From positions 1 through 10,963 of the IMG/VR virus record IMGVR_UViG_2617270976_000014: a stretch of DNA of 10,963 nt; one strand, 5' to 3'. Origin of the DNA: a virus (lineage: Duplodnaviria > Heunggongvirae > Uroviricota > Caudoviricetes). A model generated the notes under the pieces. The model was not told the origin of the DNA and made no database searches. It was given only the letters and a program-made list of their open reading frames with translations. The position numbers were made by a program, and so were the translations under genes. Positions 1-10,963 of the stretch are shown here, in pieces; the stretch's first letter is position 1; every line of letters starts with the position of its first letter.

Positions 1-1734
1 ATGAAAGAAAAAAAATTCGTTAGTGAGCTTTTCCTTGAAAATGGGCAGTTTATTTTAGTCGGTTTGACAGGTCGAACTGGTTCTGGTTGCACAACAACAG
101 CTAATATTCTTGAAAACGAAAAAACAGTCTTCCCTGATGTAAGTAAATTACAGGGGTTTTACAAGGGATTGGATGTCCATCGTTATAATATAGTTAAAAA
201 ATTCGCAGAAAATCACTGGGAAAATTTTTACTCAATTAAGGTGAGTGACCTAATCTCAGCGTATCTTCTGATGTTAACAGTTGAGGAAGCTTCTGAATTC
301 ATTCTATCATCTAATAAATTTATCAGTAAAGAGCATTTAGATATTGTATTAACTTTTGGTGTATTCTCAGATAATCTCATTTTGACAAGATTTAAAAATG
401 TAATTGAGAATTTGCTTGATCATAATAGTGAATTGAAGTTTGATAAAAAAACGATTAATAAATTTATATCAATTTTGAAGTTAGTTAGAAAATTTACTAA
501 AGAATTCAAAGCTGAACTAAATGAGATAAACTCAAATTTATATGTTTCAGCCTATCAGTTAGCAGGTAAGTCAATTAGACGTCGTGGGCGTATTGAAGTC
601 GATTTTGAAGATAAAGAGTTTATGCCTAAATCTGTTTTTCATTTGCCGGAAACTATTAATAGGGTTATTAAATTAATAAGAAAAAGCAAAAGAGATAACG
701 CATTAATTGTCATAGATGCTATTAGAAATCCATATGAGGCAAAATTTTTTAAGGATAGATATTCTGCATTTCATTTAATGTCAATAAATGCCCCAGATGA
801 ACATCGAACAAACTATTTGCGGAAACTACATAAGTTTTCAGAAAAGCAGATAGAGGAAATAGATTCTGTAGAGTCAGGTAAAGGTGATAACTCTTACAAA
901 CATCTCACCAATCCAAATGTAACTAAATGTATTGAACTATCAGATATACACATTTTTAACCCAAAAAATGAATTTGATAATGACAATATTTTAAAAGCAC
1001 AATTAGCGTGGTACATCGCACTGATGAAGCATCCTGGTCTGATAACACCTACTGCAATGGAAAGGGTTATGCAAGTTGCGTATACGGTAAAATTAAACTC
1101 TGGCTGTATATCTAGACAGGTGGGAGCTGTAGTAACTGATGGTGATAATTCAATAAAATCAGTTGGTTGGAATGATGTTGCCAACGGTCAGATTCCTTGC
1201 TCTATGAGATCTCTAGATGGCCTAATGAACGATTTTGATGAAAAAACGTACAGTCATTATGAGAGAAATAATAGTTCTTTCAGAATTAAAGCTAATGAGA
1301 AACTCTTAAATTTTAGGGCGATAGATAAAACTGGTGATATTTATAGAGGCAGGAACTTATCTTATTGTTTTAAAGATATACATAATGATCTTGATAAAGA
1401 GAAAAAAGGTAATCAAGTTCATACACGTGCATTACATGCTGAGGAAAACGCATTTTTACAACTTGCAAAATATGGTGGTATTGGCGTTCTGGGGGGGAAG
1501 TTGTATACAACTGCCAGTCCCTGTGAGTTGTGTGCGAAAAAAGCTTATCAGTTAGGTATATCTGAAATTGTATTTATTGATCCCTACCCAGGTATAGCTC
1601 AAGACCATATTATTAATATAGGTAGTAAGCCACCAAAGTTAATACAATTTAGAGGCGCAATTGGGAAGTCATATCACCGACTTTATGAGCAAATTATCCC
1701 GATAAAAGATGAGTTAGAATATCTCCTTGAGTAG
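1..1734 (+). CDS. P-loop kinase-like / cytidine (dCMP) deaminase fusion protein, AvcD/DcdV-type dCTP-deaminase antiphage protein-like (577 aa)
   Basis: Uninterrupted 577-codon ORF starting ATG at 1, stop TAG 1732-1734. N-terminal glycine-rich loop GLTGRTGSGCTT (Walker-A-like, Cys where the Lys is expected). C-terminal zinc-deaminase signature HAEENA...PCELC (HxE plus PCxxC). About 30% GC, unlike the adjacent prophage. Upstream region lies outside the window. Confidence 0.7.
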   Translation: MKEKKFVSELFLENGQFILVGLTGRTGSGCTTTANILENEKTVFPDVSKLQGFYKGLDVHRYNIVKKFAENHWENFYSIKVSDLISAYLLMLTVEEASEFILSSNKFISKEHLDIVLTFGVFSDNLILTRFKNVIENLLDHNSELKFDKKTINKFISILKLVRKFTKEFKAELNEINSNLYVSAYQLAGKSIRRRGRIEVDFEDKEFMPKSVFHLPETINRVIKLIRKSKRDNALIVIDAIRNPYEAKFFKDRYSAFHLMSINAPDEHRTNYLRKLHKFSEKQIEEIDSVESGKGDNSYKHLTNPNVTKCIELSDIHIFNPKNEFDNDNILKAQLAWYIALMKHPGLITPTAMERVMQVAYTVKLNSGCISRQVGAVVTDGDNSIKSVGWNDVANGQIPCSMRSLDGLMNDFDEKTYSHYERNNSSFRIKANEKLLNFRAIDKTGDIYRGRNLSYCFKDIHNDLDKEKKGNQVHTRALHAEENAFLQLAKYGGIGVLGGKLYTTASPCELCAKKAYQLGISEIVFIDPYPGIAQDHIINIGSKPPKLIQFRGAIGKSYHRLYEQIIPIKDELEYLLE

Positions 1735-1765
1735 AAATATTATACTCATCCTTCCTGAGGTAAGC

Positions 1766-1799
1766 TTCAAGATGATCAATAAATATTGATCATCTTGAA
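1766..1799. repeat. Perfect 16-bp inverted repeat (TTCAAGATGATCAATA-AA-TATTGATCATCTTGAA) with two GATC sites, 32 nt after the deaminase stop
   Basis: Read directly from the sequence; the arms are exact reverse complements with a 2-nt spacer. Could be a terminator hairpin or a protein-binding site. Confidence 0.8.
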
Positions 1800-2114
1800 A
1801 GTTAATTGCAGAGTCAAACTAGTAGTCAGACTGAAGCTTCGATAAAAAATGTTTTTGTTTTTTTCATTTTCTAATGACTGTTTTTTATTAGTTTCTTTTT
1901 AATGTTGCAATGCTATGCTTTTCTACTATTTTTGAATGTGGCATCTTTGATGTTTTTATACAACAAAGATGAGGGCTTATAGGTTTTTTTGTGATGTAAA
2001 AATTATCTTATTCTATAAATAAAACCTAAACTCAGTCTGAAGAGTTAAATGAGAATGGATAACCTGCTGAATATTATATTTGTAAATAGTTTGAGTTTGT
2101 TTTCATAAGTTACT

Positions 2115-3131
2115 CTATCTTAAGTTGCATAAAGGGTTTTTAGTTACCGCATCTTCAAGGTGATCGGGCGAAAAGTGGGCGTAAATCATCGTCATTTTTA
2201 TATCGGCATGGCCCAGAATATCGCGCAGCACCAGTATGTTTCCGCCATTCATCATAAAATGGCTGGCGAATGTATGACGTAGCACGTGAGTGCATTGGCC
2301 CTCTGGCAGCTCGATGCCAGCTCGCTTTACTGCTCGTTCAAAGGCTTTTCTGCACGGGGTGAATAGCTTCCCTCTGTTCTTGGGGAGTTCGTCATACAGA
2401 TCTTGAGATATCGGCACGGTGCGGTTTTTCTTACCCTTCGTCTTGGTATAAGTGATGCGGTATTTAGATAACTGATGGCCCTGCAGGTTTTCAGCTTCAC
2501 TCCAGCGTGCGCCGGTGGCCAGGCATATTTTTGCAATCAAAAGCAGACTGGGGTTTTGAGAATCAGCGCAGGCATCTAGCAGACGTTTAATTTCTTCCGA
2601 GGTCAGGAACGCCAGTTCCCCCTCAGCGATTTTAAATGTTGGCAGCCCGGCGAGAGGATTTGGTGCTGACCAGTGGCCTAGTTTTTTCAATGTGCCGAAA
2701 ACCGATGATAGGTTACGTTGCTCAAGATTCACCGTGCGTGGTTTTACTGGCGACATTAGTGTGCCGTCTTCGTTACGAACGTCACCTTTTAACCGTGCTT
2801 CGCGGTATTTCGTAAAGTCACCGGCTGTCAGTTCTGAGGCGATGGGGTCGCCTAGACCATTACAGATAATTCTAAGTTTCGCCATGAGGCGCTTGGGGTC
2901 TGCGAGTGTCTGACCATACAGGGAATACCAAAGCTCAATTAATTCTGATAGGCGTCGCCGATCATCCTTTTCACCCAACCACGGTTTTTTATTCACTTCT
3001 TCCATTGTGAAGCTTTCAAAAGCAATGGCTTCGCCTTTCGTAGCAAATTGCTTACGCACGCGCTTACCATTGCGTCCATTGGGATAGCACTCACACAACC
3101 ATTTTCCGTTCGGCTGTTTTCTGATGGTCAT
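2115..3131 (-). CDS. int: Tyrosine recombinase, P2/186-family phage integrase (338 aa)
   Basis: N-terminus MTIRKQPNGKW...YPNGRNGKRVRKQF is P2-family-like. C-terminal catalytic residues in context: ATGARWSE (Arg), HVLRHTFAS (His-x-x-Arg), MIYAHF (Tyr). Its start lies 1 nt after the stop of the upstream repressor gene (TGA-T-ATG on the minus strand). Confidence 0.9.
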   Translation of the reverse strand: MTIRKQPNGKWLCECYPNGRNGKRVRKQFATKGEAIAFESFTMEEVNKKPWLGEKDDRRRLSELIELWYSLYGQTLADPKRLMAKLRIICNGLGDPIASELTAGDFTKYREARLKGDVRNEDGTLMSPVKPRTVNLEQRNLSSVFGTLKKLGHWSAPNPLAGLPTFKIAEGELAFLTSEEIKRLLDACADSQNPSLLLIAKICLATGARWSEAENLQGHQLSKYRITYTKTKGKKNRTVPISQDLYDELPKNRGKLFTPCRKAFERAVKRAGIELPEGQCTHVLRHTFASHFMMNGGNILVLRDILGHADIKMTMIYAHFSPDHLEDAVTKNPLCNLR

Positions 3132-3132
3132 A

Positions 3133-3765
3133 TCAAAGGCTCTTAATGATTTTCAGTGCGCGGCCTACTACCTCAATGTCATCTAGGCCACACTCAAACG
3201 ATGAATCATCCTGATGCACTACTAATTTGTTTCCCGGAAGTCGAGTCAATTTAACAATGCTTTTTATCCCGTCAATATCGACTAACCACATACCATTTAC
3301 TGGTGGTGTTTGGTTGCGATCTATTAAATAAGAATCACCAGAAGTAGTCACCAGCAGTAGGTTGCTTGAGTCTGAGGGGAGTATGCTGCTATCAATGATT
3401 GCTTTTCCAGCATCGACCAATAAACCACCGTTGAGAGTCGCCTTGTCAATTTCAGGAGATACTAGTTCAGAAAGAGGTACAACCTTGCTGGAGTTCACGG
3501 AATTGATATTTTTTTTAGGTTCAATGTTTGGACCTGGCTCCCCCTGTCCGGTGGTTAGCCACAGTAAAGAAACTCCTGTTTCCAAGGCGCACTGAATCAC
3601 CCACTCTGCAGGAAAACTATCTCTTAAGTATCTGTTTGCCATGGTGCTTTTTGATGCGCCTAAGTGATCGCAAAGTTGCTGTCTGGACTTGAAATCATAG
3701 GCTGCCATTAGTCTATGGATAGCCTCTCTTCCCCCTGTATTCTCTCCAACCTTTACCTGTATCAT
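3133..3765 (-). CDS. cI: CI-type immunity repressor, phage 186-like (210 aa)
   Basis: Sits directly upstream of int on the same strand and divergent from the early operon. HTH-like segment SRQQLCDHLGASKSTMANRYL near the N-terminus. Size and position match 186 CI. Confidence 0.7.
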   Translation of the reverse strand: MIQVKVGENTGGREAIHRLMAAYDFKSRQQLCDHLGASKSTMANRYLRDSFPAEWVIQCALETGVSLLWLTTGQGEPGPNIEPKKNINSVNSSKVVPLSELVSPEIDKATLNGGLLVDAGKAIIDSSILPSDSSNLLLVTTSGDSYLIDRNQTPPVNGMWLVDIDGIKSIVKLTRLPGNKLVVHQDDSSFECGLDDIEVVGRALKIIKSL

Positions 3766-3777
3766 TTTTTAATCCTG

Positions 3778-3835
3778 TTGACGTATCAAATATTGGATCG
3801 TAGTATCTCGATGCATCAAATATTGAATCAAGTAA
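3778..3835 (+). promoter_or_regulatory. Lytic/lysogenic switch region: candidate early promoter (-35 TTGACG 3778-3783, 17-bp spacer, -10 TAGTAT 3801-3806) flanked by two copies of an ATCAAATATTGRATC operator-like repeat (3785-3799 and 3814-3828)
   Basis: Hexamers and spacing read from sequence; the near-identical 15-mer occurs twice, 29 bp apart, between divergent cI and the Apl-like gene. Confidence 0.45.
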
Positions 3836-3884
3836 AACGAGATAAAACGACGTAAACCAAACCTTAATCGGGAGATACTGCACT

Positions 3885-4127
3885 ATGAGCACTGATATTT
3901 CAATTCGTGTACCAAAAGAGATGGCTACGCCTGCAGAGTTCGCGGAATGGGAAGGTATCTCCCGCGGCTCTGTGTATCAAAAAATTCATCATGGTCAGCT
4001 TGCTAAATACATGGTCAAGAAAGAAAAAAACAAAGGCCGCGTAAGCCTGCGTTATTTAATGTACAAAACCGATCAGGTCCGTGAATCCCTCGGTCATTCC
4101 AACTTCCGCGTCATTGTTGGTAAGTAA
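3885..4127 (+). CDS. Apl/Cox-like small DNA-binding protein (excisionase / switch regulator), 80 aa
   Basis: First gene of the rightward operon, immediately after the switch region; RBS GGGAGA upstream of the ATG; size and position match 186 Apl / P2 Cox. Confidence 0.55.
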   Translation: MSTDISIRVPKEMATPAEFAEWEGISRGSVYQKIHHGQLAKYMVKKEKNKGRVSLRYLMYKTDQVRESLGHSNFRVIVGK

Positions 4128-6564: not shown

Positions 6565-8975
6565 GCCATGCTGATATGAACAACTGCAGCGGCTTTAACG
6601 AGGCCGCCGCAGCATTCTCATGGGACAGCCCGAAAAAGGCTATTAACCCTTATCTGGATCCGGCAGAAGTTGCGCCGGTTTCTGCGCTTTCAAACCTGAT
6701 CACTCTGTACGCTGCCGATAACGAGCAGGAACAACTGCGCCGCGAGGCACTCAGTGATCAGGTCTGGGAGCGTTATTTCTTTAATGAATCCCGTGATCCT
6801 GTCCAGCGCGAAATGGAGCAGGATAAGCTCATTAGCCGGGCAAAGCTGGCGCATGAGCAGCAGCGTTTTAATCCGGATATGGTCATTCTGGCGGACGTCA
6901 ACGCCCAGCCTTCCCATATCAGCAAGCCGCTGATGCAACGTATTGAATACTTCAGCAGCCTGGGCAGGCCAAAGGCTTATTCCCGCTATTTGCGTGAGAC
7001 GATTAAGCCATGTCTGGAACGACTGGAGCATGTACGCGAGAGTCAGCTATCCACTTCTTTTCGCTTTATGGCAAGCCATGAAGGGCTGGACGGCCTGCTG
7101 ATCCTGCCTGAAATGAGTCAGGATCATGTGAAACGCCTGTCCACCCTGGTAGCTGCGCATATGAGCATGTGCCTTGATGCAGCTTGTGGCGATTTGTATG
7201 CCACCGATGACGTTAAGCCAGAAGAAATCCGCAAGACATGGGAAAAGGTGGCGGCGGAAACCCTGCGTCTGGATGTCATCCCACCTGCGTTTGAGCAACT
7301 CCGTCGGAAAAGAAACCGCCGTAAACCCGTGCCCTATGAACTCATTCCGGGTTCGCTGGCGCGTATGTTGTGCGGCGACTGGTGGTATCGGAAATTATGG
7401 AAGATGCGTTGCGAATGGCGGGAAGAGCAGTTGCGCGCTGTTTGCCTGGTCAGCAAAAAAGCATCTCCTTATGTCAGCTATGAAGCCGTGATGCATAAAC
7501 GTGAGCAGCGCCGTAAGTCGCTGGAGTTTTTCCGTTCTCATGAACTGGTGAACGAAGACGGCGACACGCTGGACATGGAGGATGTGGTAAACGCCAGCAG
7601 CAGCAACCCTGTGCATCGCCGCAATGAGATGATGGCCTGTGTTAAAGGTCTGGAGCTTATCGCGGAAATGCGCGGTGACTGCGCCGTTTTCTACACTATC
7701 ACCTGTCCGTCGCGTTTCCATTCCACGCTAAATAACGGCAGACCAAACCCGACCTGGACAAACGCGACGGTAAGACAAAGCAGCGATTATCTGGTCGGCA
7801 TGTTTGCTGCATTTCGTAAGGCGATGCACAAAGCCGGGTTGCGCTGGTATGGCGTGCGGGTGGCTGAGCCGCATCATGACGGCACAGTTCACTGGCACCT
7901 GTTGTGTTTCATGCGCAAAAAAGACCGCCGTGCCATCACTGCATTACTGCGTAAGTTTGCCACCCGTGAAGACCGCGAGGAGCTGGGCAATAACACTGGG
8001 CCGCGCTTTAAGTCTGAGTTGATTAACCCGCGCAAAGGAACGCCGACAAGCTACATCGCGAAATATATCAGTAAGAACATTGACGGTCGTGGTCTGGCTG
8101 GCGAGATCAGCAAGGAAACGGGTAAATCTCTGCGTGATAACGCTGAATACGTGAATGCCTGGGCGTCTCTGCATCGTGTTCAGCAATTCCGCTTCTTTGG
8201 TATTCCGGGGCGTCAGGCTTACCGTGAACTTCGCTTGCTGGCTGGTCAGGCGGCAAGGCAACAGGGTGACAAAAAAGTAGGTGCGCCGGTACTGGATAAC
8301 CCGCGTCTTGATGCCATTCTGGCTGCTGCTGATGCTGGTTGTTTTGCCACCTACATCATGAAGCAGGGCGGCGTACTGGTTCCCCGTAAATATCACCTCA
8401 TCAGAACCGCTTATGAAATCAACGAAGAGCCGACCGCCTATGGCGATCACGGCATTCGTATTTATGGCATCTGGTCACCCATTGCAGAGGGCAAGATCTG
8501 CACTCATGCAGTGAAGTGGAAAATGGTTCGTAAAGCCGTTGACGTTCAGGAGGCGGCAGCCGACCAGGGCGCTTGCGCCCCTTGGACTCGTGGCAATAAC
8601 TGTCCCCTTGCTGAAAATTTGAACCAACAAGGGAAAGACAAATCAGCTGATGGGGATACCAGGACGGACATTACCCGCATGGATGACAAGGAGTTGCACG
8701 ATTACCTGCACAGTATGAGCAAAAAAGAGCGCCGGGAACTGGCTGCAAGGTTACGCCTGGTGAAACCGAAACGGCGTAAAGACTACAAACAGCGAATTAC
8801 AGACCATCAGCGACAGCAGCTCGTCTATGAACTGAAGTCCAGAGGATTTAATGGCAGCGAGAAAGAGGTCGATTTACTCCTTCGCGGCGGCAGTATTCCG
8901 TCAGGAGCAGGCCTGCGTATCTTCTATCGGAACCAGCGTTTGCAGGAAGATGATAAGTGGCGAAACCTGTATTAA
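6561..8975 (+). CDS. A: Rolling-circle replication initiator endonuclease, P2/186 gpA family (804 aa)
   Basis: HUH motif (TVHWHLLCF) and paired catalytic tyrosines ([11 protein letters not shown]); size and position after the early genes match P2 A. Confidence 0.85.
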
Positions 8976-9067
8976 TTACGCGGGTTAACAATTCGTGCTC
9001 TTAATAATACCAGGCATATCAGGCTAATGAACGTAAAAAAACGTTTTACATCAGTAAGATTATTATA

Positions 9068-9087
9068 TACTGTAAATATAAACAGTG
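9068..9087 (+). promoter_or_regulatory. LexA (SOS) box TACTGTAAATATAAACAGTG
   Basis: CTGT-N8-ACAG with an AT-rich spacer, close to the consensus TACTGTATATATATACAGTA; lies 41 nt upstream of the ATG at 9129 and overlaps plausible -10 hexamers. Confidence 0.6.
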
Positions 9088-9128
9088 GTTATGCATACAG
9101 TATTGCTTGTGGTGTCATAGGAGGAAAG

Positions 9129-9317
9129 ATGCAGGACTATTTTTTGGAGTCTTTGAAGCTCCAGCGCATTGATTTTTTTCTTAAGCTTGTAGCGGCTAGT
9201 GAGTGTAGTGATGAAGAGAAGGGGCTGGCTTTGCAGTGGGTTTCTGAACTGACAGATGAACTCATGGCAAAAATCAGAACCCACGAATACAACCGCTCAA
9301 TGGATGTCATCAGCTGA
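9129..9317 (+). CDS. Small SOS-controlled protein (62 aa), possible Tum-like antirepressor
   Basis: Strong RBS AGGAGG before the ATG at 9129; LexA box just upstream; the position after A and next to a DinI-like gene mirrors 186 tum. No sequence match to Tum could be verified by eye. Confidence 0.4.
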   Translation: MQDYFLESLKLQRIDFFLKLVAASECSDEEKGLALQWVSELTDELMAKIRTHEYNRSMDVIS

Positions 9318-9327
9318 GGTGACCTTT

Positions 9328-9561
9328 ATGCGCATTGAAATAATGATCGATAAAGAGCAGAAGATTAGCCAGTCTACCCTGGACGCCCTTGAATCCGAGC
9401 TTTACCGCAATCTGCGCCCCCTGTATCCCAAAACGGTAATTCGCATCCGCAAAGGTAGCTCTAACGGTGTGGAACTGACCGGACTGCAACTGGACGAAGA
9501 AAGAAAACAAGTGATGAAGATTATGCAGAAGGTGTGGGAAGACGACAGCTGGCTGCATTAA
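9328..9561 (+). CDS. dinI: DinI-family protein (77 aa)
   Basis: MRIEIMIDKEQ...DALESEL...IMQKVWEDDSWL aligns by eye with E. coli DinI (MRIEV...DALAGEL...ILQETWESADDW); RBS GAGGTGA upstream. Confidence 0.75.
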   Translation: MRIEIMIDKEQKISQSTLDALESELYRNLRPLYPKTVIRIRKGSSNGVELTGLQLDEERKQVMKIMQKVWEDDSWLH

Positions 9562-9720
9562 GAAAAGTTGCTGGCGTCTGAACTTGGTTCTGGCGTCAGC
9601 AAGGTTGAACAACGAGTACAGTGAGGCGTTAGGTGTGGCGTTTATTTGATGAGTGAACGCCCGTTCTGCGACAGGTTCGGAGATTAAGGTTGAAACTACG
9701 GGCAAAATACCATCTTTTTC

Positions 9721-10146
9721 CTACTTAATTGAGTCCAGTAACAAGTTACAGTTACTCTCATTGTAGAGAGAACGAGCAATTAGTGTTACCTGCTTTCCAT
9801 TCATTCCCGGCTTATCCCATAACACAGCTTCTTGCGACGCCACAAATTCAGCATAATCAATTATGCGTTGTTCGTGATCTGGTTCCTCATAGCCAAAGTA
9901 TGAGAGCGCATCGTTGTAAGCGTGGTAAGCTGCTTTCTGTAATATCTTGATATCGGCTGTAGGTACTTGCTCCGTGTAGCTAGGATCTAATTGTGTGCTA
10001 CTGCCATAGAATGCACATGAAAGGTAAGATATTGATTTCTGTTGAGCTTTAGTTCCTTTCTCATAGTTTTTAGCTGTTACCGCCTGAACAGGGACGCTAA
10101 CAAAGCTTGCAACCAGAATTAAAATTAATACGTAAAAGCTTTTCAT
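9721..10146 (-). CDS. Secreted or periplasmic protein of unknown function (141 aa), likely prophage cargo gene
   Basis: N-terminal signal peptide (MKSFYVLILILVASFVSVPVQA, AxA-type cleavage site, no lipobox Cys); GAGG RBS 7 nt upstream; two Cys in the mature part; about 40% GC; opposite strand to the phage operon, between dinI and the cos-like motif. Confidence 0.6.
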   Translation of the reverse strand: MKSFYVLILILVASFVSVPVQAVTAKNYEKGTKAQQKSISYLSCAFYGSSTQLDPSYTEQVPTADIKILQKAAYHAYNDALSYFGYEEPDHEQRIIDYAEFVASQEAVLWDKPGMNGKQVTLIARSLYNESNCNLLLDSIK

Positions 10147-10419
10147 TTTGACCTCAGCCGAAACGTTAGAGAGACTATCGAAATTTGTAAAACCCGTGGC
10201 GATTCAGTTTGAGATCCTCCCCCTTACATGATTTTTAATCAAATATATGCTTTTGTAAGCATACCTGTTAACCGAATTATTTATTTTTAGAGATCTTCCG
10301 ACATACTGATTATGCCCGCTGAGGAGTTCACCTTGCGTAAAGTCCGATTCGCTTTACTCGTCTGTGCATGTCTATGCTGCATGAGATTGCATGATCGTTT
10401 GAGGATCGTTTTTGCTAAG

Positions 10420-10446
10420 GCCCGCCAGAACTGGCGGGCTTTTGCG
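10420..10446 (+). terminator. Rho-independent terminator (GCCCGCCAG-AA-CTGGCGGGC followed by TTTTGCG)
   Basis: GC-rich inverted repeat (8-9 bp stem) immediately followed by a T-run on the plus strand. Confidence 0.6.
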
Positions 10447-10488
10447 TAGATCATGCTCCTGCATGAAAACCACTACATAAAGCGGGCA

Positions 10489-10507
10489 GGCGTGGCGGGG
10501 ATACGAG
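10489..10507. other. Candidate cos site of a P2/186-family phage (GGCGTGGCGGGGATACGAG)
   Basis: The first 13 nt match the P2/186 cohesive-end sequence as I recall it (GGCGTGGCGGGGAAAGCAT for 186); position after the A-tum-dinI region is where cos is expected in an integrated prophage. Recalled from memory, not verified. Confidence 0.4.
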
Positions 10508-10632
10508 CGCGCGCTCATGGTTGAATTAATGAAATTATGGTGTTAAATAGGCTAGCTTTTTAAGTCGTGAATATTCAATTTTTCAACTCATTTTTTTCAT
10601 AGGGAGGAGTAATTGACATGGTTATGTTAGTG

Positions 10633-10963
10633 GGTGATGCTGCCAACTTACTGATTTAGTGTATGATGGTGTTTTTGAGGTGCTCCAGTGGCTTCTGTTT
10701 CTATCAGCTGTCCCTCCTGTTCAGCTACTGACGGGGTGGTGCGTAACGGCAAAAGCACCGCCGGACATCAGCGCTATCTCTGCTCTCACTGCCGTAAAAC
10801 ATGGCAACTGCAGTTCACTTACACCGCTTCTCAACCCGGTACGCACCAGAAAATCATTGATATGGCCATGAATGGCGTTGGATGCCGGGCAACAGCCCGC
10901 ATTATGGGCGTTGGCCTCAACACGATTTTACGTCACTTAAAAAACTCAGGCCGCAGTCGGTAA
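10633..10963 (+). mobile_element. IS1 insertion sequence, left end (IRL GGTGATGCTGCCAACTTACTGAT) continuing beyond the window
   Basis: Canonical IS1 left inverted repeat at 10633-10655 followed by insA; the window ends at the insA stop, so insB and the IRR are not visible. Confidence 0.9.
10688..10963 (+). CDS. insA: IS1 transposition regulator InsA (91 aa)
   Basis: GTG start; translation [40 protein letters not shown]... matches IS1 InsA as I recall it. Confidence 0.95.

Follow-up and report, generated by a model that had tools for sequence, protein, structure and literature searches.

An anti-phage dCTP deaminase gene as cargo between the ssrA attachment site and the integrase gene of a 186/Fels-2-like prophage

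The window, a stretch of 10,963 nucleotides of tailed-phage DNA from the IMG/VR record IMGVR_UViG_2617270976_000014, is the left end of a 186/Fels-2-like (Peduoviridae) prophage, and the anti-phage dCTP deaminase gene with which it begins is prophage cargo, lying between the left attachment site (attL) and the integrase gene (int). The full reading proposed here, to which a probability of a little under nine in ten is given, is that an attL derived from ssrA lies outside the window and that a low-GC cargo module of about 2.19 kb (positions -78 to 2114), comprising the deaminase cassette, a 3' hairpin region and the relic of an earlier cargo gene of a family here designated c3, lies inside the prophage. 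The interval at 1735–2114, between the deaminase gene and int, is interior non-coding filler of the cargo slot, made up of the 3' tail of the deaminase cassette and the decayed stump of the earlier cargo gene.

Gene content of the window

The deaminase gene, encoding a protein of 577 aa, occupies positions 1–1734 on the plus strand and is followed by two genes on the minus strand, one for a tyrosine integrase of 338 aa (2115–3131; Pfam Int_N and Phage_integrase) and one for a CI repressor of the 186 type (3133–3765; Pfam Phage_CI_repr and Phage_CI_C). The coordinates of the interval between the first two genes are exact, as the deaminase ORF ends at 1734 and that of the convergent int at 2115, with its minus-strand stop codon at 2115–2117. 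Beyond cI, the ORF listing together with family searches disclosed apl, cII, fil, a dam methylase gene and a replication endonuclease gene, and the neighbours of cI are syntenic with apl, cII, fil, dam and repA of a related locus (L001). As the CI repressor is of the 186 type, the locus was placed at the left end of a 186/Fels-2-like prophage.

Positions 8976–10963, past the replication endonuclease gene, correspond to the classical P2 old/tin-type hotspot position (repA to the portal gene). The ORFs there are one of 96 aa (9027–9317), a DinI-like one (inside 9256–9561) and one of 141 aa on the minus strand that looks secreted (9721–10146); the 96 aa and 141 aa ORFs had no PADLOC match. The content of this region in the window differs from that of Escherichia coli NCTC9038 at the same position. 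An IS1 insA gene starts at 10688 and runs past the end of the window, which suggests that this copy of the prophage is possibly disrupted, and some of the host prophages look defective, with pseudogenes in NCTC9038 and the IS1 in the window.

The 577 aa protein is a known anti-phage dCTP deaminase of the DcdV type. It matched the dCTPase entry of PADLOC with E = 2e-145 and the NCBIfam equivalog NF041025.1 (antiphage_deaminase) with 425.5 bits against a cutoff of 400, and the RefSeq product name is 'anti-phage dCTP deaminase' in 19 of 20 genomes. The architecture is the two-domain one of DcdV, with an N-terminal P-loop kinase-like domain (GRTGSGCTT, including G29 and C30) and a C-terminal zinc deaminase domain (Pfam dCMP_cyt_deam_1, PF00383), and the GSGC P-loop and the HAEENA...PCELC motif can be read in the translation. 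G29 and C30 fall at what appear to be defence-critical positions, mutation of the equivalent P-loop positions in the E. coli AW1.7 protein having abolished defence (Tal et al., bioRxiv 10.1101/2021.04.26.441389). The E. coli AW1.7 and Vibrio homologues defend by dCTP depletion (bioRxiv 10.1101/2021.04.26.441389; 10.1101/2021.03.31.437871), and the deaminase of the window is predicted from these tested homologues to protect the lysogen through dCTP depletion when other phages infect it.

The first 3.2 kb of the window shares 99.7–99.9% identity with seven complete E. coli genomes and about 97% with thirteen more, and all 20 copies of the deaminase gene in these complete genomes are linked to int. 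A second deaminase allele, here called group B, has 71–75% amino acid identity to that of the window and was found in four complete E. coli genomes, in the same slot of phages with an int 92% identical; there the convergent stop codons of the deaminase gene and int are about 10 bp apart, and the spacer is absent. None of the deposited genomes in the phages collection carries the deaminase of the window. The single relative in GTDB, from Photobacterium (67% identity), lies at a contig end among transporter genes and is uninformative on the spacer.

The closest matches to int were the int genes of Fels-2, SopEPhi, RE2010, SEN8 and Cartapus, at 84–85% nucleotide identity, and Fels-2 and SopEPhi are reported to integrate into ssrA (PMC3448106, citing Pelludat et al. 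2003). The integrase of the window is of this Fels-2/SopEPhi type, predicted to target the 3' end of ssrA (tmRNA). Near-identical int–deaminase modules, with 99.4–100% amino acid identity in the integrase (L013–L024), were also found joined to a CI only 52% identical to that of the window, and two more kinds of CI accompany the group B modules; the att–int–cargo block recombines independently of the immunity region.

Composition and content of the interval between the deaminase gene and int

The original prediction had described a sharp compositional break at 1735–2114, and the break is real and sharp, lying at the right-hand edge of the interval within the last ~30 bp of int. GC content is 0.271 in 1735–2114 and 0.328 in the deaminase coding sequence, against 0.485 in int, and the maximum-likelihood single change point in a scan over 1–4000 is at position 2146; the deaminase gene and the spacer form a single low-GC block. 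Relatives that lack the deaminase gene align only from 2130 or 2160 onward, and homology to relatives with other cargo begins at 2120–2134, within the last few codons of int. The boundary at 2130–2160, where the GC change point and the starts of the relatives' alignments fall, is the right-hand edge of a variable cargo module.

The absence of any visible tRNA-like sequence or att core, noted in the same prediction, was borne out by the searches: ARAGORN found no tRNA or tmRNA in the window, and the ssrA att core had no match in it with up to three mismatches allowed. Neither ssrA nor the att arms are significantly similar to the spacer, in which the longest word in common with the core is 5 nt, and the 186-type arm site TGYCGCCA is absent from 1–2114, its only copy in the window being at 2748, inside int. 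The two CTGAAG-containing repeats that had been pointed out as present but weak do exist, as TCAGACTGAAG at 1826–1836 and TCAGTCTGAAG at 2032–2042, identical at 10 of 11 positions; as a candidate att core they were rejected, since pairs of 11-mers with at most one mismatch are no more frequent here than by chance (4 observed, 5.4 expected in Markov-1 simulations).

The spacer was found in 20 of 5426 E. coli genomes, always with the deaminase gene, and a search of the same 5426 genomes disclosed no origin for it elsewhere in E. coli. It is kept whole in both subgroups of the allele, between which its identity is 93.2%, with indels, as against 97.6% and 97.9% for the flanking genes; the spacer evolves faster than its flanks.

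The deaminase-side part of the interval (1735–1893, plus strand) is the 3' untranslated region of the deaminase cassette, and six-frame translation gave stops in all six frames, as it did for the 380 bp as a whole. It contains a conserved hairpin at 1761–1804 (plus strand), 27 nt past the deaminase stop codon, formed by an inverted repeat with 21-nt arms that are 90% complementary. The fold of 1725–1870 has a free energy of -36.6 kcal/mol (z = -3.86), and the 13-bp core stem of the hairpin, at about -20.5 kcal/mol, is invariant across both allele subgroups. No U-tract adjoins the hairpin; further on, at 1843–1870, is a hairpin made of A and T only, with a T-run. A scan of the interval for consensus terminators returned no match, neither hairpin scoring as canonical, and a promoter and terminator consensus scan upstream of the deaminase gene showed no enrichment. 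The hairpin at 1761–1804 is a possible candidate for a barrier to transcription where the deaminase gene and int converge, its stem being invariant and so without covariation. Such a barrier would limit convergent read-through, and keeping two convergent transcription units apart would be the only plausible role of the interval. A sub-threshold Rfam match of the hairpin to mir-81 was rejected as meaningless here. Also rejected was an integrase remnant in the spacer, suggested by a 13-nt match, CTTCAAGATGATC, to the 3' end of the group B int; tblastn of the integrase against the spacer gave a best E value of 2.

The int-side part of the interval, at about 1894–2106 on the minus strand, is the decayed first third of a former c3 cargo gene, some 70 codons long, frameshifted and with in-frame stops. 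In relatives, c3 encodes a membrane protein of about 207–224 aa (PHROG 21256) and starts 13–23 nt downstream of the int stop codon. The starting clue was a single weak blastn match, in a comparison of the spacer with all fetched loci, to the slot of a c3-bearing phage. With tblastn, residues 3–60 of c3 matched minus-strand positions 2101–1931 with 34% identity, 31.6 bits and two in-frame stops, a score reached by none of 500 dinucleotide shuffles. A protein HMM built from nine distinct c3 members matched at the same place over its positions 5–61 with 13.9 bits, the maximum among shuffles being 11.0 (0 of 500 reaching the score), and a DNA HMM of the 5' region of c3 gave 21.8 bits over window positions 2052–1894, with none of 300 shuffles above 0 bits. 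These scores are statistically clear, though low in absolute terms (13.9–31.6 bits) and obtained in AT-rich sequence. In addition, the junction of the int stop and ATGAA seen in c3 relatives is kept in the window, with a deletion of 1 nt. As a relic of the cargo families c0, c1 or c2 the spacer was rejected, the best score being 23.9 bits and the matches not collinear. The ancestral arrangement would have been int followed by a c3 gene, of which the distal, arm-proximal two thirds were probably overwritten by the deaminase cassette in the opposite orientation.

That the 380-bp spacer encodes a functional non-coding RNA, either a DifV-like antitoxin for the deaminase or an antisense or terminator element for int, is improbable, though of the alternatives weighed it fares best. 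The strong conserved hairpin and the retention of the entire spacer in both allele subgroups would fit such an RNA, as would the restraint of Vibrio DcdV-type deaminases by the small RNA DifV (bioRxiv 10.1101/2021.03.31.437871). DifV, however, is an RNA of about 150–175 nt immediately 5' of the deaminase gene (bioRxiv 10.1101/2021.03.31.437871), in the same orientation as dcdV and co-transcribed with it, whereas the spacer lies 3' of the gene; and on the 5' side, the gap of 78 bp between the phage arm and the ATG differs from the DcdV arrangement in being too small for a DifV-like RNA of 150–170 nt unless this overlapped the arm. Against an RNA also stand the group B allele, which does without the spacer, the fast evolution of the spacer and its indels, and a search of 1600–2300 against Rfam at permissive thresholds, which gave nothing above threshold. 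Promoter-like sites in the interval are not enriched (3 found, 3.8 expected), and more than half of the spacer is accounted for by the gene relic.

Attachment site and limits of the prophage

E. coli NCTC9038 is 99.9% identical to the window over positions 1–3200, and its prophage is bordered by ssrA on one side and by a truncated CP4-57-type intA on the other. In this genome a 45-bp direct repeat, TGGTGGAGCTGGCGGGAGTTGAACCCGCGTCCGAAATTCCTACAT, was found as the 3' end of ssrA and as a second copy 196–240 bp upstream of the deaminase ATG. The attL of the window is predicted to be such a 45-bp copy of the ssrA 3' end, outside the window and 196–240 bp to the left of position 1, a placement read from near-identical genomes (7–17 mismatches over 6.7 kb), the window itself starting at the deaminase ATG. 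In all 20 complete E. coli genomes with this deaminase gene the core and an arm stand directly upstream of it, each genome having a second copy of the core elsewhere; in these genomes, as in the 12 IMG/VR contigs that have this deaminase gene and reach upstream of it, the distance of the core is again 196–240 bp. IMG/VR holds 17 loci with a relative of the deaminase, and all 13 that extend far enough upstream read core–deaminase–int–cI; 12 of these 13 belong to the allele group of the window, and the contigs of the other four end at or near the start of the deaminase gene.

The core is followed by a conserved int-side phage arm of 117 bp, which ends in two tandem 186-type Int arm sites, CTGCCGCCAAAGTGCCGCCAT, and the opposite arm carries CTGTCGCCATTTTGCCGCCAC. 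Both sequences match the published repeat of 186-type arms, the consensus of which is tgccGCCActt (PMC3448106). In locus L003 the tandem pairs of arm sites are at 1649/1660 and 24056/24067, beside the two cores, and upstream of the window the core TGGTGGAGCTGGCGGGAGTTGAACCCGCGTCCGAAATTCCTACAT would be expected at -240 to -196, with the TGCCGCCA pair closer in, at about -101 to -83. Four deposited phage genomes, Cartapus, SEN8, RE2010 and SopEPhi, have the same 45-bp core beside int.

A synthetic empty site of 688 bp, from which the DNA between the cores had been removed together with the deaminase gene, is present unbroken and at 100% identity in many E. coli genomes, and 967 genomes match over at least 80% of its length. 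Comparison with prophage-free genomes, a check put forward with the original prediction, recovers the empty site, and it is recreated only when the deaminase gene is removed along with the prophage. Because of the upstream ssrA repeat, the phage arm and the recreated empty site, the deaminase gene is assigned to the cargo inside the prophage. The original prediction had offered cargo between att and int as one of two possibilities and had taken an attL to the left of position 1 as placing the deaminase gene inside the mobile element; as this is where attL maps in the near-identical genomes, it is that possibility which holds. Such cargo, regarded there as unusual for the phage family, is indeed atypical, yet documented (SopEPhi orfY, AY319521.1; PMC13586616). 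Upon excision the attP circle would take the deaminase gene with it, and the gene would be packaged along with the phage, as suggested by the other cargo found in the slot in the deposited phage genomes Cartapus, RE2010 and SopEPhi.

An origin of the deaminase cassette as a separate small mobile element or satellite, inserted in tandem at ssrA and leaving a degenerate second att before int, is very unlikely. ssrA is a site of tandem integration, with a CP4-57-type intA island adjoining the prophage, and the cassette has a foreign GC content and an orientation opposite to that of all other cargo in the slot. It has, however, neither an integrase or recombinase of its own nor a second core. To its left it borders on the 117-bp arm of the phage itself, an arm also found in deposited phage genomes, and to its right on the remains of a phage cargo gene that run continuously into int. 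A diverged deaminase allele (74% amino acid identity) sits in the same slot, flush against int, and the cassette is linked to int in every one of the 20 complete E. coli copies. Least probable of all, and in effect excluded, is the other possibility of the original prediction, that the deaminase gene is chromosomal-island DNA abutting the prophage and attL lies within 1735–2114, where a GC break close to the int stop and a core only 117 bp past that stop in cargo-free relatives would lead one to expect it. The interval holds neither a core nor an arm-type site and resembles neither ssrA nor the arms; in 20 of 20 genomes the core and phage arm stand beyond the deaminase gene, and the natural empty site is restored by joint removal of the gene and the prophage.

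Next to the prophage, in tandem with it, stands a CP4-57-type island, the intA of which starts 167 bp from the internal copy of the ssrA core (L003 627–1554; L002 5393–6833); in NCTC9038 this intA is truncated by ISEc52. As a multiply occupied site, ssrA makes the automatic delimitation of prophages harder. Two further IMG/VR viral genomes, L012 and L016, begin exactly at the deaminase ATG, as does the window, and the automatic trimming of proviruses apparently stops at the edge of the gene, so that the arm and the core, 80–240 bp further out, are lost.

The cargo slot between the arm and int in related phages

The slot is empty in SEN8, where the arm abuts int and 117 bp separate the core from the int stop. 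Among the 55 IMG/VR loci in which both int and the core were captured, 15 have exactly 117 bp between them and are empty, and the other 40 carry 764–2775 bp of cargo. This cargo is AT-rich throughout (median GC 0.33) and falls into at least seven unrelated sets among the 40 occupied loci. The occupants are a protein of about 400 aa, of the family of SopEPhi orfY, RE2010 gp01 and Cartapus gp33; a membrane protein of about 350 aa; a 509 aa protein of the GapS1 antiphage family (7 loci; 446 bits against a cutoff of 320); the c3 membrane protein of about 220 aa; a pair of DCD-like and ThyX proteins; the dCTP deaminase; and an IS5 insertion. Most of the occupants other than the recognised defence genes belong to PHROG families of unknown function and have no PADLOC or Pfam match. 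The deaminase cassette is the only one oriented opposite to all other cargo in the slot.

The slot lies inside an att-delimited element, has conserved flanks in the arm and int, occurs in variable and empty states and holds recognised anti-phage genes, as an att–int hotspot does. It is tentatively proposed, at somewhat less than even odds, that the slot is heavily used and that its cassettes are overwritten and not cleanly swapped, leaving datable relics, so that the occupants with no annotated function would be candidate anti-phage genes. The orfY family, the membrane protein of about 350 aa, c3 and the DCD-like and ThyX pair are put forward as such candidates because they have the slot in common with two known defence genes.

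The pair of DCD-like and ThyX genes was seen in L039 (IMG/VR contig 3300028453_000039) at about 7040–8600, downstream of int. The product of the first gene is dCTP-deaminase-like, has the dUTPase fold (PF22769) and carries a membrane segment at its C-terminus; the second gene encodes a ThyX thymidylate synthase (PF02511), and neither matches PADLOC. The two genes, a second nucleotide-metabolism cargo of the slot, may act together in defence or counter-defence.

In L036, L002 and other occupied slots, cargo ORFs that run in the direction of int extend through the arm-type Int binding sites, and unrelated cargo proteins thus have similar C-terminal peptides, encoded by these sites (...GGTLAAES, ...DKLAAEH). 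Such ORFs begin 13–23 nt past the int stop, a spacing suggestive of joint transcription with int. Across attP from the slot, a gene of 160 aa lying between the arm and ogr (L003 23517–23999, minus strand) corresponds to Cartapus gp32 (L004 2011–2493). It matches PHROG 2561 ('DNA ligase'), weakly a BRCT domain, and the C-terminal part of the PADLOC candidate PDC-S48 (E = 1.7e-7), and SEN8 has a different small ORF at this position; both sides of attP seem to accept cargo.

The prophage of the window resembles SopEPhi, Fels-2, RE2010, Cartapus and SEN8 in its 45-bp ssrA core, its tgccGCCActt-type arm and its homologous int, and the slot occupied by the deaminase gene is the one filled by orfY in SopEPhi, gp01 in RE2010 and gp33 in Cartapus. 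Those phages have there an uncharacterised protein of about 400 aa, encoded in the direction of int, or, like SEN8, no cargo, whereas the window has a convergent deaminase cassette and a relic; the Fels-2 record stops about 170 bp past the end of int. The position also matches the int–att defence hotspot described for P2-like prophages, which accounts for 3% of P2 defence systems, was called atypical and is probably mobilised with the phage (NAR 2026, PMC13586616). To that description the present analysis adds the ssrA-integrating lineage of Fels-2 type and the exact place of insertion, bounded by the 186-type arm sites on one side and the int stop codon on the other, as well as the occupancy of 40 of 55 loci and the relic of one cargo displaced by another. 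In common with the old/tin and Z/fun hotspots of P2 (Rousset et al. 2022, PMC9122126), the slot has variable low-GC defence cargo at a fixed position in syntenic genomes; unlike old/tin, between repA and the portal gene, and Z/fun, in the tail region, it lies between att and int, and it is absent from the E. coli hotspots given in PMC9122126.

The att–int hotspot, the ssrA site and the deaminase have all been published, and the locus is an ordinary example of a described arrangement, the modest extra being the relic that shows how one cargo gene displaced another. As the deaminase gene belongs to the prophage, this defence gene can spread by lysogeny and is not fixed in the chromosome. In the ssrA-integrating Fels-2-like lineage, cargo can be lost to boundary rules of the kind 'att sits next to int', and the relic of the displaced gene gives a concrete picture of turnover in the slot.
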